Shown piece after piece: positions 12,468-20,748 of a DNA stretch of 64,000 nt. The translations under genes and the position numbers were made by a program. Source of the stretch: Cladosporium halotolerans (lineage: Eukaryota). The stretch is from the NCBI RefSeq assembly GCF_011745625.1, contig NW_027191457.1:496001-560000 (forward strand), in the 5' to 3' direction. The number at the start of each line of letters is the position of its first letter. Within the stretch, counting starts at the first letter, position 1. Under the pieces are notes generated by a model. That model ran no database searches, was not told the DNA's origin, and worked only from the letters and a program-made list of their open reading frames with translations.

Positions 12468-13605
12468 ACGCGCTCACGAACGAGCATAATTGTACTGGCT
12501 GAAAAATGGTGAACGTTTGATACGATCAGAGGCGGCGAGCCGTCTATGGGGCTTGGTTTAGATGCATTCGAGGGCGCTTTGGATGGCCTTGTTTTTGAAT
12601 AGAGCATTGGCGCTACGAAAGGATAAGACCGTGCACGGTTCACGGCACATACTACAAATGAAAACCAACGATAAATGAGCCTGCCTTTAATTGACCACGG
12701 GATTTCTCTGAATCGTGAATGTGCGTTAGATAGAGTGCCAACTACAGTAGCACAACCAAGGTACAATATTTGCCCTATCTCACCCTCAACCCCGGTCCCC
12801 TCCGGGTATGCCCTTGATGTCAACGGCTCGGACTCGGCCGGGGTTGTCACGCTGTCAAGTCTCCCGTCTCCCCACAAGGTCAGACGAACGTCACTTCCGC
12901 CAACTCGCGCGAGCGCCCCAGCAGTGGTACAGCACGGCAGGGGACAAGCACACGAACGCGCGATGCACATGCGGTGCCAGGCGTGAAATACAGTGACACC
13001 TCGGCAAGGCACATCGGCCAACGATGCCGCTATGTATGTCAAGCTTCGCGCGCTGGGGCGAGGTGGCGCATGCACTTCACGGAGGGCGCGTCGCTGCATG
13101 CGTTGAGCGCTGCCGGCAGGCTCGGGCTCGGTGAGGAGCTGGGCAGAGGCAGGGTAAGATCAGGCCTGGTTTGGCAGCTGGCTGCCTGCCTACCTTACCT
13201 TACCTTGCCTGAGCTCAACTTCACCTCATCGTGACCTTGATCTCGCCGGGCCTGCTGTGCTTGCTGCTTGACCACCGCCCGCGTGTGCTCGCTCTTCCCT
13301 GCGTATTGCTCAATGTTTCGTTCATACTGACGGCAGCCACGAAACGTGCGTGTCTTTCCACTTGCATCAGCTGCCATCGCCTGCTCTCGCTCCAAACCCC
13401 GCAGCTGCTTCCCAGACCTCACTGATTACACCTCCGGGCAAGTGAAGAGTGCTCCAAGGTAAGCCTGTCCCGTTGCAGATTGCATTGCATTTCCACCACA
13501 ACCCGCCTACTTCCTGCATGTGACGCCATCTTCATTGCAACAATCCACATCTTCAACCCTCCTATCTGGTCGGACGAGCTCGCCCAAAAACACAACCGCC
13601 ACCCT

Positions 13606-15447
13606 ATGACTTCTCACCACCAACGGAGCGCCAGTCCCAGATTCCGCAGCATCAAAGCCATCTTCGAACGCCCTGAAACGACTCCCCCTCCTCGACCGTT
13701 CTCTCGCGGCTCCAAACCCACAACTCCTACTGACGAAATGCCCAACCCAGCCTCTCCCCTCATCACCAGAAAAAAGCTCGAACCCCACCAACGAGCCACA
13801 ATCGACTCCCTCCTCGAAGCCTCCTACAACCAAAACTGGCCCTCAACCCAACAACCCCACCTCCGACCCAAGTCCTCCTGGATCGGCCCACCGCCACCCG
13901 CCCGCCTGCCCTCGCACACCACCATGAAGCAGAAAGTCACCATCACATACGCCTCGCCCGGTCTGCAGCCGCCGGTCTACATCGCCACCAGCCTCAGCGA
14001 CCCGCAGTGGGAGCCAGTGGAGATGGGCTGCGCGGAGCTGCCCGGTGGCGAGCGCGAGTTTGTCAAGACTTTTCATGTCCTTGAGGGCGAGTATCAGTAC
14101 AAGTTCCGCCTGGGGCCGGGCGATTGGTGGGTTTGCGATGAGGAGAAGCCCACGGTTGACGACGGGTTCGGCAATCGGAACAATGTGCTTTTTGTGCGGA
14201 CTGAGATGCTGGCGAAGAAGGCGGCTGCTAATCCGGATCTTATGGCTGGTGACAGCTCTGAAGTGGACCGATTGGCGCCGGAGCATACATTTACTCATGA
14301 GAAAGCACCGGTGAAGGAGGCCTATAAGCGTGATAGTCTCGGCGATGATGTCCTGGTCGGGTCATTCGAAAACAAACCCAACCTGGTCGACCAGACCGGT
14401 GACCACCAGCCGCCACTTTTCGCTCATGAGCAAAACGGCCCGCCTCACCACAAGCTGGACGTTCCACCCGAGGACGTGCCCGTACATTTCTCCCGCCAGG
14501 ATACTCAGACCGCCGTTCCCGACGAAGATCATGAGTCCGCTCATCTCCCTTCAGATCTTCTATTCGCTCACGAAAAGACAACTCTCCCCGCAAGAGTGCC
14601 AACCCCAGGAGTGGATGAGGACGAAGACGATATGGAGCAGCCGCCACTCATGAAGCATGAAAGCCTCTCCCCCACGTCCTCAAAACGCGCGAACGATCCC
14701 GAAGCCGCGGATCAACACAACCAGCATTCCGACAACAACCACTCCGCCTCACCTGTGCTACCTACCTCGCCCGCGCACATCCCCGCCGAAGCCGACCCCA
14801 ACGACCCCTCTCTCGAAAAGTTCCCAACCCACCACGAAGGCATCATTTCCTCACTCCGCCGCGCCTCCCAGCGCATGGCCGAAGACGAAACCACAGACGA
14901 AGTCCTCTCGTCCGGCTCCCCGCTGTCCAAAACCCGCAGCCAGTCCTCCAACCAGTCCACGTCTCTGCCTAGCGTGCTCGAAGACGAGGACGAAGAGGAA
15001 GAGGAAGAAGAGGAAGAAGAAGCGCAAACCCCAGCGCCCTCCAAAACCCAGGCCCTAGCCGCCGGCCTGCACATGCTCTCGGACACCGGCGACCGCCCCG
15101 CGGCCCTCATCACTCCGCCGCACACGCCGGACGAGTCCAAAGCGCCCACCGCCGCGCAGCTCCCTGCCTCAGCTCCGCACGCGCACGATCACCACCACAA
15201 GCCGCAGGCGGAGAAGGACATCCGCGAGGAGGCGAAGCACGACGTCTCGCATCACGGGCAGGACGAGGGTGCTGCCGCGAAGGAAGGGCAGCAGGGCCTG
15301 GATCCCGCGCCGAAGAGTTTCTGGGGCGGTATGTGGGAGACTGCGCTGGGGTTGGGGTTGACGGTGTTGGTGGGGGCGGGCGCCGCGTGGTTGGCGTTCA
15401 GGCTGCAGGATTCTGTTAAGGATGGAGGTGCGATTTTGAAGGGGTGA
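13606..15447 (+). CDS. CBM48/AMPK-beta glycogen-binding-domain protein with acidic disordered region and C-terminal transmembrane helix (alternative start 13924)
   Basis: KVTITYASPGLQPPVYIATSLSDPQWEPVEM...GEYQYKFRLGPGDWWVCDE...DDGFGNRNNVL; poly-Glu tract; hydrophobic tail ALGLGLTVLVGAGAAWLAF. Confidence 0.82.
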   Translation: MTSHHQRSASPRFRSIKAIFERPETTPPPRPFSRGSKPTTPTDEMPNPASPLITRKKLEPHQRATIDSLLEASYNQNWPSTQQPHLRPKSSWIGPPPPARLPSHTTMKQKVTITYASPGLQPPVYIATSLSDPQWEPVEMGCAELPGGEREFVKTFHVLEGEYQYKFRLGPGDWWVCDEEKPTVDDGFGNRNNVLFVRTEMLAKKAAANPDLMAGDSSEVDRLAPEHTFTHEKAPVKEAYKRDSLGDDVLVGSFENKPNLVDQTGDHQPPLFAHEQNGPPHHKLDVPPEDVPVHFSRQDTQTAVPDEDHESAHLPSDLLFAHEKTTLPARVPTPGVDEDEDDMEQPPLMKHESLSPTSSKRANDPEAADQHNQHSDNNHSASPVLPTSPAHIPAEADPNDPSLEKFPTHHEGIISSLRRASQRMAEDETTDEVLSSGSPLSKTRSQSSNQSTSLPSVLEDEDEEEEEEEEEEAQTPAPSKTQALAAGLHMLSDTGDRPAALITPPHTPDESKAPTAAQLPASAPHAHDHHHKPQAEKDIREEAKHDVSHHGQDEGAAAKEGQQGLDPAPKSFWGGMWETALGLGLTVLVGAGAAWLAFRLQDSVKDGGAILKG

Positions 15448-16396
15448 GGGGTGGATTGGGTTTGTGTAGGAGGAGGAGAGGATGGTAATTATTGCTGATT
15501 CATGCTTGGAATGCAACCTGTGAGCAAGCCGAGGAGTGCACAGGTGGTTTATAATTCGGAAACATGAGCAAACACGATGGGCATGCACGGAGAGCTGAGT
15601 AGATGTCGAAATGCAGTGCAATACCTTGCGGCAGATTCATCATTTTGCATCCAGAGACACGTTCTTCCACGCGCGTTCATGGTGTCTCAAAATAAACAAC
15701 ACAAGCGTCTGCGACATGCAGCTCCAACTTCCCCACGCGGCTTGCGGGAGCGTCCCTCAAGCGGCGGGAGGCCCGCGGAAGGAGGGCCGTGGATGTGGCC
15801 GCAAGACTTCATCGAGAGCGCCTCCTCCGATTAGCCGACGATCAGTCCCTCCATCATCACATCGCATCCCGCTTTTTCCATCCTGGCCATCTTCAAATCC
15901 GCACGGGAGAACCGTCAACGCCGCTTTGCTTGCCACCCGTATCAGACGACTAGGACACATCATCCCTTTCTTCGATCACACCAAACACCAGTGATTGCGA
16001 CCATCTGGCTGCTGCCGAACGAAGTATCTCTGGCGACGATTTGATAAGCCTTGGTCTAGGCTTGCTCTGCGCCTCCTGGCCATCACCACTTGAACCCACC
16101 TGCTCTTTGGCTCTTGCGAACGACCGCATCCCTTTCTTCCGATTGAAATCCACCGCACGGTACCCTTCTTCGCCACGATATCCGAGACGGCGCAACAACC
16201 TCGCTGAGCACAAGCGGTGGCGGTTGCACCATTTGGTTCGCGGGGAGGAGCGGGGGCTACGGAGGGACAGTGAGCAGGGTAACAGAGAAGGCTTATTATT
16301 GTCAAGAGCACGGAGAAACAAGGAAGCGCCACGGCGGGCGTGCCGAAGCCGGCTTGAAAGAGTTTTAACAGGCGATTCGGATGGTGCGTGCCAGCG

Positions 16397-18356
16397 ATGG
16401 ATCCGCAAAGCCAGGCTTTCACCCCGTACAGTAGCAACAACGAGACGTGGCGCCTGCAGTCCGACGTCGCCCGCGTCCAGCAGGTGCAGGCGGAGCACGC
16501 GGAACGCATCGCGCGGCTGGAGCGCCGGCAGGAAGAGGATGCGCGCGTGAAGAGTGTTTGGGGTCAGAGTTCGCCGTTCCCGAGCGTTTTGAGCGGAACG
16601 CCGCAGCAGAGTGAGACACGCCTCCGTTTACCTTTTGCTATGAGAAGGTTACTGACTTGGTATTGCAGCGCCGTATCAGCAGCCTCCGACAGATCAGTTT
16701 CGCAACTTCGACGACGAAGCCAACAACCTCATGAGTAGCCTACACTTAGACGCGGAGGAAGAGCCGCGCAGTAGGGGCATGGGCGCTGCTTCGCGGGCGA
16801 ACAGCGTGCGCTTCGACGAGACTGCCAACCAGAATCATTTCTCGCACTCGTCGCGGCCATCGATGGATTACTTGCCAAGAGCTGGCAGCGGTCTCGGTGG
16901 TCTCTCGATGAACGAGCGCAGCGGTTCGCACAAGTCGGACGGCAGAGCAAGCTCGGTGCATTCTATGCGCTCAGCAGCCTCTGGTCGGGCGAATAGCTTG
17001 AACTTTGAAACTTCATACGCGATGGGCGACTCTTCACGGTCACCGATCGGCACCCCGGTTCTCGCTCCCGGTCTGTTGCTACTTGGCTCGGTTCCTGCCA
17101 TCATCCGCTGTTGGATGAACACGAACTTCAAGCACGATGCGCTCCTTTACGCGGCGGTGTGTACGGGCTCCTACAAGTCGTATCTCGACATTCGGTTGAT
17201 TCGCAAGCTGGGCTTCGACGAAGATATCGAAAGAGACGCAGACGGCGTACCGACTGTCGAGCTGCCAGTGTACTTTCCAGAGGCTGTCCCGCATCCTACA
17301 TCTTCGCGGTCAAGCAGCCCTGCGCCGCAATTACCGACAATGACCGTGAACTTTCACGTCGTTGACGCTAGCACCTACGAAGGTGACTCCAAAGCGATCC
17401 AGATCTTCATCGGCAGCGACACATTGCGGGCTCACAGTGCGGACGTTCTTTTTTCGTCGAGCAGCCTGACACTTTTCGACGACGAGCACAGCAAATTGAG
17501 CATACCGTTAGTCAGGCCGGAGAGCGAGGCGTCATTCAAGAGCCTGTACGTCAGCAGTGGGAACCCGCTTTCTTCGACTCAGCCTGAGAGCGAATCGAGA
17601 GAAGGCCTCTACGTGAACGGGCTAGGTCGAGGAAGCTCCGGCGTTTCCTTGACCGCTAGTCCTCCGCCATCGATGAAATACAGGGCGCCTGGAACTCTGA
17701 GCGTAGATACTGCAAACGCAGACGCAACTCGGCCTGGCGCTGCTACTTCGGACACGGCAAGTCGCCCCGTAAGCCGGCAATCGAGCACACGACCCTCGCT
17801 CAATCCAATAAATACGCAAGGAGACGGTCAGACGGTGCAAATTGAGCCTTCTGCCCAAAGTGCTACGCAGAGCACTCAACAGCGTGCGCCCAACACTCCT
17901 GCGACTTCGTCCAATTGGCGCCGCGACGCACCACATCTCCCTGCAAGTGCATCAACAGCGTCTCAGCCTGGCAGCACTCTTGATTGGGCGAATGCTGGCA
18001 AGCCTCGCCCAGGTGCCACCGAAACGTCTGGCACTTACCAACGGAAAGACACCGGCATCAAAGTTCTCAAACCAAAGTCGGCGACACGTACCTTCTCTGG
18101 CACATCGACTGTCCCTTCTTCCGCCGCGAGTCCAGCAGATGGCCGCAGCCGCTTCTTCGACGATGGCGTCAGACGCAGTACCTCTGGCTTTGATGCTAAA
18201 GCGACCGAGACCAGTCGAGGCGACGCCTCGGCAGTCGGTTCGGCCTCGTCACCCTCTGTTGCTCCAGGCGGGGCGACGCAGCCAAAGACGCGCTCGAACC
18301 CTGTTGGCGGCGCCAGTGCATTCTCTTGGCTCAACCCCAGCGGCTTGAGCAAGTGA
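16397..18356 (+). CDS. Fungal protein: N-terminal coiled coil, central retropepsin (Ddi1-like) fold with CTGS in place of DTG, disordered Ser-rich tail; intron 16611-16668
   Basis: Exon 1 MDPQSQAF...WRLQSDVARVQQVQAEHAERIARLERRQ joins the 541-aa ORF through a GTGAGA..ACTGAC..CAG intron; motifs AAVCTGSYKSYL and IFIGSDTLRAH. Confidence 0.85.
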
Positions 18357-19559
18357 TTTGCTTGTCTTCGGTCGAGGACGTGCGCTTTTGCGAGGAACCA
18401 AATAGATGAGACGACTACCTTTGACGAGTGGCGCTTGGTTTTTACAGGGAGCGCGGAAGGGCCCTTGCCAGTCGCCTATGCAGGCCTTATGTACTGTAAG
18501 CGAATTTTGTCTGCGATTCACTTGCTCCGACTCTTTGCCGTGTGGAGGTAAGGAAACAACCATGTCGCGTCACCCCGCTCCGTGAATGGGGCTCTTTCCG
18601 CTTTCCCAGCTTGGCACTCTAGCACTTGTGTTAGTGAGGTCCACTCCGTTGATAAGCCTCGCTCAAATTGTGTTCTCGAATGCTTACCACCACGTCGTGA
18701 AACCAAGCCACACGACTCGCACTGTGTGCTTTATTAGGGCTTCGGTGACGCGGCCCCGTCCGTCGAGGTTAATTCTTACCCCAGACTCTGGCGAACACCT
18801 GCGATTTTGTGGCAGATCCGAGGGAAATGTCACAGACAAGATCGGTATTTTCTGAATAAATGGTAGTACACCACTAAGCCCACGGGTCAAACTTGAAGAT
18901 TCTGCACGTTGCAGTCGTGGAAGAGCGCTCTTCCACCGCGATTCTGCCGGAGACTCGCAAAGCGCTGCGCCACGGCTGAGCACCGACTAACCCTAGAACG
19001 CACTGCCAACGCGGCGGATTAGGGCTTTAGCATTTAATTGCTATAGCAGTAGCAGAACTTCTACCGAACAAACAAGGAACCCAATTTTCCATGCTCCATG
19101 TTGCCTCGTCATCATCCGAACTTGAGCATTTGCGATTGGACGTTGGCCCCATGCTTATCCCAGAGCCAAGACGTCGTTCGTCACTGGTTTGAGGCACGAC
19201 ACATGAGCTTAGACACGCGAAAGCCACGCCTAGTGGAACCATCCGTCGTCTGGCATCACTGACGACCTCGCTCGGATGTTTTTGATAGGGCATAGTCTTT
19301 TCGGTGGGCACCTTCTCTGGGTTATTCGGCCGACTACTTTGTCTTGGCTCTCTATCGCGCAACGGTCCTTGTCACTGGCCGCGTAAACATCATGGCAGTG
19401 AAACAATCAATGGATGCGGGCATGGTCGATGGCGGTGTCGACCAGCGCTGTGGAAGTAGGTATAAGAGCTGTAAACGCTCCGAACCGTAGAAATATGGCC
19501 ATCAACCGTTCCCAACAACCATTCAACTTCTCATTCATTCGCTCCGATCCCGACCAGCC

Positions 19560-20748
19560 ATGGCACCAATTTCCAGCTTGTTGACCTTAGGTCTTGCGGT
19601 ATTGCCGGTTGCGCTTGCTCACCCTGGCCACAGCCATGTTGAGGAGGCAGCAGAGCGTGCCGAATTCGTCAAGAGGAGCCCGAATTCTGTTCGCTCATGC
19701 GCAGATCAGCTCTCTCGCCGTGGCGCCTTGGAGGCTGCTCTCACCCGCCGTCAGGAGATGGCTCGTAAAGTCCGCGCCAAGAGAGGCCTTGACAGCCACT
19801 TGGTCCGCCGTGACTTTGCGGCGTACAACTTCACCCACGAGTCGACTTCCGGCGTTGCCTACGGCGATGACGAGACTTCTCTCTTCTCCGACGACTCTAC
19901 CTGTATCCTGCAGCCCGAGGTCACTCAGGGCCCGTACTATGTCGACGGAGAGTTGATCAGGAGCGAGATCACGGACGGTCAGGAGGGCGTACCGCTCTAC
20001 CTCGACATCCAGCTTGTCGACACCAGCACCTGCGAGCCTGTCCCGGCCGTCTACATGGACATCTGGCACTGCAATGCCACCGGCGTTTATTCCGGCGTGT
20101 CTGCCTCCGGCAATGGTAACTCCGATGACACCAGCAACCTCGACGCGACGTTCCTTCGCGGAATCGTCCAGACTGACATCAATGGCGTTGCTCAGTATGA
20201 GTCCATTTTTCCCGGCCACTACACTGGACGTGAGTATTCTCTCTCCGCTTCCGAGCCACACAGTTAATTCTAATAACCCCATCCCAGGCGCCACCCACAT
20301 CCACGTCCTTTCCCACAACACCAACGACACCATCATCCGCACCAACGGCACCGTCCTCGGCAACAACGCCACGACCACGCACGCCTCGCACGTCGGCCAG
20401 ATCTTCTTCGACCAGGACCTGATCTCGCTCGTCGAGGCCACGGCACCCTACAACACTAACACGCAGGAGCTGACGACCAACGCCGAGGACTCGATCCTGG
20501 GCGAGGAGGCTGCGGACATGGATCCTTTCGTCGAGTGGATCCAGCTCGGCGACGACATCACCGACGGCGTCATGGCTTGGATCAGCATCGGCATCGACCC
20601 GACTGCGGACGACGAGATCACCTCCGCCGCGACGATCTACAAGGATGGCGGCGTTGCGAACGAGAACTCTGGCATGGGCGGTGGCCCTGGTGGTGAGGGC
20701 CCCGGTGGCAACGGTACTATGCCTACTGGCGCGCCTCCGATGGCTTAA
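19560..20748 (+). CDS. Secreted intradiol ring-cleavage dioxygenase-like protein; intron 20230-20287
   Basis: Signal peptide MAPISSLLTLGLAVLPVALAHPG; CILQPEVTQGPYY, DIWHCNATGVYSG, FLRG, spliced FPGHYTGRATHIH, HVGQIFFDQ. TATAAG at about 19461. Confidence 0.92.

Follow-up and report, generated by a model that had tools for sequence, protein, structure and literature searches.

Introduction

The closest described counterparts of the protein reported here are Ddi1, which we take to be MEROPS family A28, and Ddi2, through their retropepsin-like (RVP) domains (PF09668; structures 2i1a, 4z2z, 4rgh, 3s8i, 5ys4 and 7d66). The protein is encoded by a gene of the fungus Cladosporium halotolerans, on the forward strand of a 64,000-nucleotide stretch of contig NW_027191457.1 (positions 496,001 to 560,000, RefSeq assembly GCF_011745625.1). 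This stretch is called the window below, and positions are counted from its first nucleotide. In Ddi1, Asp220 of both subunits holds the catalytic water at the dimer axis (PMC5028754, in extract), the cleft is open and the flaps do not wrap the substrate (extracts of PMC5028754 and PMC7072860), and ubiquitin-dependent proteolysis by the protein is treated in PMC7149228 (in extract). The Thr/Ser of the D-T/S-G-A motif is essential for the dimerisation of retropepsins, for which a "fireman's grip" and a platform have been described (PMC7072860, same extract).

In the protein of C. halotolerans and in its relatives a cysteine stands at the position of the catalytic aspartate. A preliminary description of the locus had offered three explanations: a redox switch or metal site, a novel cysteine protease, or a pseudoprotease scaffold. 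We propose that the last of these is probably correct, and that the protein acts as a dimeric scaffold or adaptor. The literature search turned up no work on the family or on a natural Asp-to-Cys retropepsin; it did not cover Neurospora and A. nidulans locus tags, and a characterised orthologue, or a fold already assigned automatically, may exist. The family was not found by name in the supplements of PMC10023807, where it could be present under a bare locus tag, and a match in PMC10232905 was an insect gene.

A Predicted Ddi1-Type Fold

The domain covers about residues 210–364 (17082–17546; this and all features below are on the forward strand) and was assigned to the Ddi1-type RVP fold by AlphaFold2, Foldseek and structure searches. 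The AlphaFold2 model of residues 202–367, based on 123 sequences, had a predicted local distance difference test score (pLDDT) of 90 and a predicted template modelling score (pTM) of 0.85. The top Foldseek match was the RVP domain of yeast Ddi1 (E 2.5e-7), and Ddi1 occupied all listed rows through rank 27. A Foldseek-independent search of 48,161 chains placed Toxoplasma Ddi1 first, with a Z score of 12.8 and a root-mean-square deviation (rmsd) of 2.5 Å over 114 aligned residues, the runner-up being at 7.8. After VIA re-alignment the top eight positions were all held by Ddi1 RVP domains (Z 12.7–14.1, rmsd 2.1–2.8 Å, 109–119 aligned residues), and the best other retropepsin scored 8.1. The two best matches in a viral structure library were likewise Ddi1-type. 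These results confirm, in predicted models, the retropepsin fold that had first been suggested for positions 17090–17510; the location stood, and the true span is slightly wider. Other retropepsins (HIV-1, XMRV, M-PMV and EIAV; bacterial RloA, APRc and Lpg0085) belong to the same fold family and gave weaker matches, at Z 6–8.1. Their contexts are different and they carry the D-T/S-G motif (for the retroviral enzymes: PMC7072860, in extract).

Identity to Ddi1 RVP domains was 12–21%. A domain profile run against 177,635 PDB sequences returned four matches at E ≤ 10, all of them Ddi1 and weak when taken alone (E 0.37–1.4). In the corresponding alignments, the catalytic motif of Ddi1 is paired with A-V-C-T-G, and its consensus helix with G-S-D-x-L-R-x-H; the Cys-for-Asp register is based on hidden Markov model alignments and on the fold, not on a residue-level superposition. 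The Ddi1 encoded by the same genome was matched weakly by HH-align (probability 26%, E 7e-4). The family profile scored this Ddi1 at 10.6 bits, above all 2000 shuffled sequences (best 8.0) and all 239 background tiles; most of the score came from the helix segment, and the catalytic segment alone gave −2.5. PF09668 was matched neither by this protein nor by any of 44 family members, for which the Pfam search yielded only seven single-member matches (E 0.085–0.22). A Pfam scan of the protein in three pieces found no family and two chance-level matches, on exon 1 only, while NCBIfam gave no match for four proteins and a single-sequence PDB search returned nothing. The protein contains no UBL, HDD, UBA or other Pfam domain, and a single long helix is the only structure that the full-length model shows besides the RVP domain.

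The domain shares with Ddi1 and Ddi2 the extra helix after the active-site loop, the Thr/Ser-Gly that follows the catalytic position, the G-x-D-x-L-K/R-x-H consensus helix and the C-terminal strands of the dimer sheet. The consensus helix and three C-terminal strands (17412–17507) belong to a predicted Ddi1-type dimer sheet. A short variable hairpin was located at the site of the Ddi1 flap (17226–17255) from the strand assignment, the spacing relative to the genome's own Ddi1 and the low conservation. Judging by strand positions and spacing, the flap is apparently about ten residues shorter than that of Ddi1; HH-align places this region otherwise, with low confidence. A Ser/Pro-rich insert with a conserved S-R-S-x-S-P (17286–17333; pLDDT 69 at positions 81–90 of the modelled construct) is present, as first described, between two long strands and would lengthen the hairpin that joins them. 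Further differences from Ddi1 are the catalytic position itself, which is Cys and in no case Asp, a Ser instead of Ala three residues later, and a coiled coil with motif-bearing disordered tails in place of the UBL, HDD and UBA domains. We therefore regard the domain as working like the Ddi1 RVP dimer module without belonging to the Ddi1 protease family, since the catalytic Asp and the UBL are absent.

Conservation of the Catalytic Position

In the C-T-G-S motif (17160–17171) the catalytic Asp is replaced by Cys236, and the Thr/Ser-Gly of the active-site loop is retained; the TGT codon reported at 17160–17162 was borne out. From 411 distinct proteins we obtained 408 aligned domains, 395 of which have a residue at the catalytic position, the sample leaning towards Dothideomycetes and Eurotiales. 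This residue was Cys in 386 domains, Ser in seven, Gly in one and Asn in one (gap in 13), and Asp was never observed, so that orthologues neither keep the Asp nor vary freely. The next position was Thr (229) or Ser (155) in 384 of the 395 domains and the one after it Gly in 387; position +3 was Ser in 94% of the representatives, giving C-x-x-S. A tree of 364 distinct domains (165 sites; domains with more than 35 gaps were dropped) showed eight independent changes at the catalytic site, six to Ser and one each to Gly and Asn, each with a different nearest neighbour. It ranked 26th of the 165 sites by number of changes, the median being 44 per site. The invariance of the Cys, which the preliminary description had made a point to verify, was thus found only in part: the constraint is strong, and the residue is nevertheless replaceable. 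As judged from these alignments, Cys236 is strongly constrained, yet the eight independent changes show a behaviour that would not be expected of an obligatory nucleophile.

This bears directly on the possibility of a new enzyme with a symmetric Cys/Cys' dyad, in which one thiolate would be the nucleophile and its partner the acid/base. Such an enzyme would cut a peptide or isopeptide bond or carry an acyl group and, like Ddi1, might act in the ubiquitin system. The Cys lies exactly at the catalytic position and is followed by the retained Thr/Ser-Gly, the short flap need not prevent substrate binding given the open cleft of Ddi1, and a gene for a Ubp12-type deubiquitinase was present in the fetched DNA at 18 of 80 loci. 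Several results speak against it. The nucleophile is replaced in 9 of the 395 domains, and only two histidines exceed 60% conservation, one in the consensus helix (89%; also His in yeast and Leishmania Ddi1) and one in the insert (67%), neither being invariant. The protein has no UBL, UBA or other Pfam domain. The Ubp12 gene was linked at only 3 of the 19 loci with full 10-kb flanks, its order and orientation vary, and in the present genome 147 kb of the same contig separate the two genes. With the eight changes and the absence of an invariant His arguing against a cysteine protease, cysteine-based catalysis is very unlikely and the least likely of the three readings.

A second cysteine, C219, in the first strand (IRCW; codon at 17109–17111), was present in all 392 domains with a residue there and did not change on the tree; one Pro was likewise unchanged. 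The R-C-W segment (17106–17114) thus contains a cysteine that is more invariant than the one at the catalytic position and could, along with YLPEA and RPE, delineate a surface peculiar to the family. Ser at the catalytic position is illustrated by two natural variants: P0055 from Hortaea werneckii, which shares 99% identity with a copy that has Cys, and P0272, a fragment from Aureobasidium melanogenum, which reads S-T-A-S. P0287 (493 aa, JGI), a divergent protein, has Asn there; its flanks are unrelated and the linear motifs described below are all missing from it, which may reflect a lineage-specific reuse of the domain.

A Predicted Homodimer

The prediction for two copies of the domain gave a score of 0.74, compared with 0.02 for the best control, with a contact agreement between runs of at least 88% and a pLDDT of at least 78. 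The mark used for this score was reached by 21 of 30 solved pairs and none of 23 single chains from microbes, and by 17 of 29 solved pairs and none of 30 single chains from eukaryotes. In the model, the two copies meet through the A-V-C-T-G-S loop, where Thr touches Thr', and also through the consensus helix and first C-terminal strand, an arrangement that fits the "fireman's grip" and platform of these enzymes. The homodimer that had been supposed to bring the two loops together is therefore supported by prediction, and the C-T-G-S loops are predicted to meet at its two-fold axis. From this model and from the Asp220 pair at the axis of Ddi1, the two Cys236 residues would be near the axis.

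Such a position is the starting point of the second thiol-based reading, a redox or metal sensor. The Cys236 thiols at the axis would form a reversible disulfide or another oxidation product, or would bridge one soft metal ion, Zn or Cu, and oxidation or metal would switch the dimer geometry or the access to the cleft and hence the binding of partners. In agreement with this, loop 33–40 of both copies of the construct lies within the predicted interface, and Cys is found in 386 of the 395 domains. The Ser at +3 makes a CxxS, which is a redox motif. A disulfide is nevertheless disfavoured by the geometry of retropepsins, in which sulfurs placed at the Asp C-gamma positions would be about 5 Å apart, too far to bond without rearrangement. 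The Cys-Cys' pair (35-35' in the construct) was outside the 25 best-resolved contacts listed, the loop has no other invariant Cys or His that could act as a ligand, and six independent changes to Ser occurred in otherwise intact domains. In retroviral proteases, dimers are regulated by the reversible oxidation of cysteines located elsewhere in the protein (PMC9598996, in extract). Taking these observations together, we consider a sensor unlikely.

Coiled Coil and Linear Motifs

Outside the domain, the only other structured element predicted was a long N-terminal helix or coiled coil at residues 14–54 (16436–16561, ending in KSVW). It was modelled by AlphaFold2 in P0004, a 99%-identical homolog, with a pLDDT of 81–89 over residues 21–50 and a heptad core of L20, V24, V27, Q31, H34, I38 and L41, in line with the coiled coil noted at first. 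The rest of the P0004 model was mostly below pLDDT 50, and in this monomer no short motif docked on the domain.

Conservation of the disordered parts was measured in an alignment of 112 proteins, chosen partly on the terminal motifs, and in 229 family proteins of 520–720 aa not so chosen. Residues W55, S113, R114, V118, R119, F120, L538, A622, F623 and W625 were invariant in the 112 proteins. The most conserved stretch outside the domain was SRANSVRFDE (residues 113–122, 16791–16820), a near-invariant motif in the disordered linker; SV[RH]F occurred in 224 of the 229 proteins. In the disordered tail, KVLKP (residues 536–540, 18060–18074) had K536 in 97%, V537 in 98% and L538 in 100% of the sequences, with [MI]KVL[KR] in 205 of the 229, and the C-terminal motif NPVGGASAFSWL (residues 615–626, 18297–18332), which contains the invariant A622, F623 and W625, was recognised as [ST]AFxW in 221. 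Of the terminal motifs picked out in the preliminary description, KSVW and SAFSW are conserved, whereas SRFF (18147–18158) is lineage-restricted, being found in 46% of the columns and in 41 of 150 representatives.

The strict RVxF consensus for docking to the phosphatase PP1 is [RK]-x(0,1)-[VI]-x-[FW]. SRANSVRFDE resembles PP1 regulatory subunits in its invariant V-x-F within a disordered segment, with basic residues before it, acidic ones after it and an aromatic pair 8–9 residues further on. Unlike those subunits, the family has no K/R directly before the Val, the Val of SVRF being preceded by Asn and Ser, so that the motif fails the strict consensus; the latter was found anywhere in just 21 of the 229 proteins. 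PP1 regulators of the RVxF-PhiPhi type, such as PNUTS, have basic residues before and acidic residues after the motif (PMC10731240, in extract). SRANSVRFDE is the best candidate for a key partner site, either for PP1 docking or for a basophilic kinase, and is put forward as a lead.

A Proposed Pseudoprotease Scaffold

Among the three explanations we favour a Ddi1-type pseudoprotease scaffold or adaptor, with the fold and the dimer elements kept and the Asp absent. Its proposed anatomy follows from the retained dimer elements, the coiled coil and the selection acting on short linear motifs outside the domain. In this proposal, a Ddi1-like protease domain would have been copied at or before the base of Pezizomycotina, the canonical Ddi1 being kept, and the copy would have lost the activation of water by two carboxylates. 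Because the two carboxylates are gone, cleavage as an aspartic protease is impossible; this absence of aspartic-protease chemistry is established. Two RVP domains would continue to associate by way of the Thr/Ser loop and the C-terminal sheet, aided by the coiled coil, and the pair would present two copies of each linear motif to partner proteins. The open cleft and the conserved RCW, YLPEA and RPE residues would also be offered to partners, and the Cys would be kept chiefly because, being small and without charge, it can be accommodated at the two-fold axis.

The reuse of an aspartic-protease fold for binding is known from the wheat xylanase inhibitor TAXI (3hd8), Bla g 2 (3liz) and the soybean basic 7S globulin (3aup), which are inactive and aligned to the domain with Z 4.3–4.6. 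These pepsin-fold proteins are bilobed secreted monomers without a symmetric Cys pair, in contrast to the intracellular homodimeric retropepsins.

Some observations weigh against the proposed scaffold and its origin. The scaffold role is suggested by the architecture, as read from sequences and models, and the favourable dimer score may stem from resemblance to Ddi1 dimers of known structure. The Cys, in 386 of 395 domains and with eight changes against a median of 44, is retained beyond the needs of packing, for which Ser, Ala or Asn would do; such retention suggests that the thiol serves some purpose. The Ddi1 origin holds relative to solved structures, and a Ty3/gypsy origin is conceivable: PF12384, the Ty3 peptidase family, was weakly matched by one of the 44 members (E 0.13). 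The genome itself yielded no retrotransposon protease for comparison. If the thiol is indeed used, the Asp/Asp' dyad could have become a working Cys/Cys' dyad, as a redox or metal switch or as a thiol nucleophile, coupled to signalling partners docked on the motifs, possibly PP1. We regard this broader scheme as tentative and rather doubtful, and retain the pseudoprotease scaffold as the working model.

Distribution and Relation to Ddi1

A search of 1.84 billion representatives gave 163 clusters at E ≤ 0.001, 150 of which were listed. The named members among those listed, which include Aspergillus and Zymoseptoria, belonged to seven classes of Pezizomycotina, namely Dothideomycetes, Eurotiomycetes, Sordariomycetes, Leotiomycetes, Lecanoromycetes, Geoglossomycetes and Pezizomycetes, the genera being placed in classes from general knowledge. 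No named yeast or basidiomycete was present among the matches listed, most of the representatives having no name, and two entries labelled "Quercus suber" probably stem from contaminating fungi. The gene is present in one copy in the genome of C. halotolerans, and its nearest named relative, from Cladosporium fusiforme, is 89% identical across the domain. A canonical Ddi1 with D-S-G-A is encoded on another contig of the same genome, so that the Cys-swapped protein is an additional gene.

A profile search of proteins of 85–291 aa revealed no Asp-bearing sister; its 33 matches, judged from the listing, resembled members of the family or fragments. In the ESM Atlas, the domain resembled by its features a 196-aa Basidiomycota cluster (0.89), a 216-aa one (0.81) and retropepsin clusters (0.75), all under the 0.9 mark. 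The Basidiomycota clusters could be sister proteins or retroelement proteases and serve as leads.

The Deubiquitinase Name

Many UniRef and NCBI entries of the family carry the name "ubiquitin carboxyl-terminal hydrolase 19". Taken literally, this name would make the protein a deubiquitinase of the USP19/Ubp12 type (PF00443 and PF06337), and 4 of the 150 representatives, long forms of 2149–2266 aa, do have DUSP and UCH domains behind the Cys-swapped protein. The four long forms lack the conserved C-terminal motif. Of the 18 loci with a Ubp12-type gene, 15 had it in tandem downstream, one upstream and two in convergent orientation. In all 14 tandem loci examined (L047 was left out), the frame ended after the C-terminal motif and before a separate Ubp12 frame. 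The long forms are therefore best read as merged gene models, and the transfer of names from such models is likely to be the source of the wrong label. The UCH domain PF00443 is absent from the 633-aa protein, and the transcript ends near position 18530, far from Ubp12. The identity as a deubiquitinase, which we hold to be extremely improbable for the family, is refuted for this locus. The family resembles USP19/Ubp12 only by name and by neighbourhood in part of the Dothideomycetes; it has no UCH or DUSP domain and its fold is unrelated. With a linkage as loose as that described above, a functional link to Ubp12 is not supported.

Ubp12 is the usual downstream neighbour at many Dothideomycete-like loci (L016–L057). 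Another merged model, P0141 from Coniosporium apollinis, is joined to an upstream GDSL/SGNH hydrolase. The deubiquitinase name is also borne by PADG_05352 in PMC6678485, a putative orthologue.

Gene and Transcript

A single open frame (16656–18356) holds every peptide quoted in the preliminary description. The gene starts upstream of it, with exon 1 (16397–16610, ATG at 16397), which encodes residues 1–71 and the first base of codon 72. It is followed by a 58-nt GT..AG intron (16611–16668) and by exon 2, whose coding part extends to the TGA (16669–18356). Codon 17160–17162 is that of Cys236 in the spliced product of 633 aa, and the spliced frame has the same residue as the database protein P0004 at 626 positions. 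The intron was skipped in contigs from three of four sequencing runs (X1, X2 and X5, from three studies; retained in X15), and in one run the sequence ended in an A-run at 18530. The gene is thus real. The RNA status of these runs is a program's guess, to which the splice joint lends support; none of the listed runs holding the gene's sequence was recorded as RNA.

The 5' leader is long, a spliced contig reaching at least 540 nt 5' of the ATG (about 15855–16396), and contains a single ATG. This upstream AUG opens an upstream open reading frame (uORF) of 17 codons (16381–16434), out of frame and overlapping the main start. An upstream ATG at −15 to −21 of the start was found at 51 of 73 loci and in 37 of 50 distinct leaders, each other 7-nt bin having 0–4. 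Across loci L002–L081 its position is kept and its frame is not, with an overlapping uORF, a two-codon uORF or an in-frame extension as the outcome. Such positional conservation suggests a conserved translational control.

The neighbouring genes are common only to the closest loci. From the look of their translations, we take the one at 13426–15447 to encode a carbohydrate-binding, AMPK-CBM-like protein, and the one at 19491–20748 a secreted protein that is presumably intradiol dioxygenase-like.

Significance

If it is true that the Cys pair does chemistry, the family would present a change of mechanism from Asp to Cys on the fold of HIV protease, of which no example was found in the literature. 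In any case, a fold and a set of testable residues can now be given to a gene, single-copy in C. halotolerans, that neither Pfam nor NCBIfam recognises and that public databases wrongly call a deubiquitinase. If the protein is a pseudoenzyme, it would be the retropepsin-fold counterpart of the pepsin-fold binding proteins and a candidate signalling hub of hyphal fungi.

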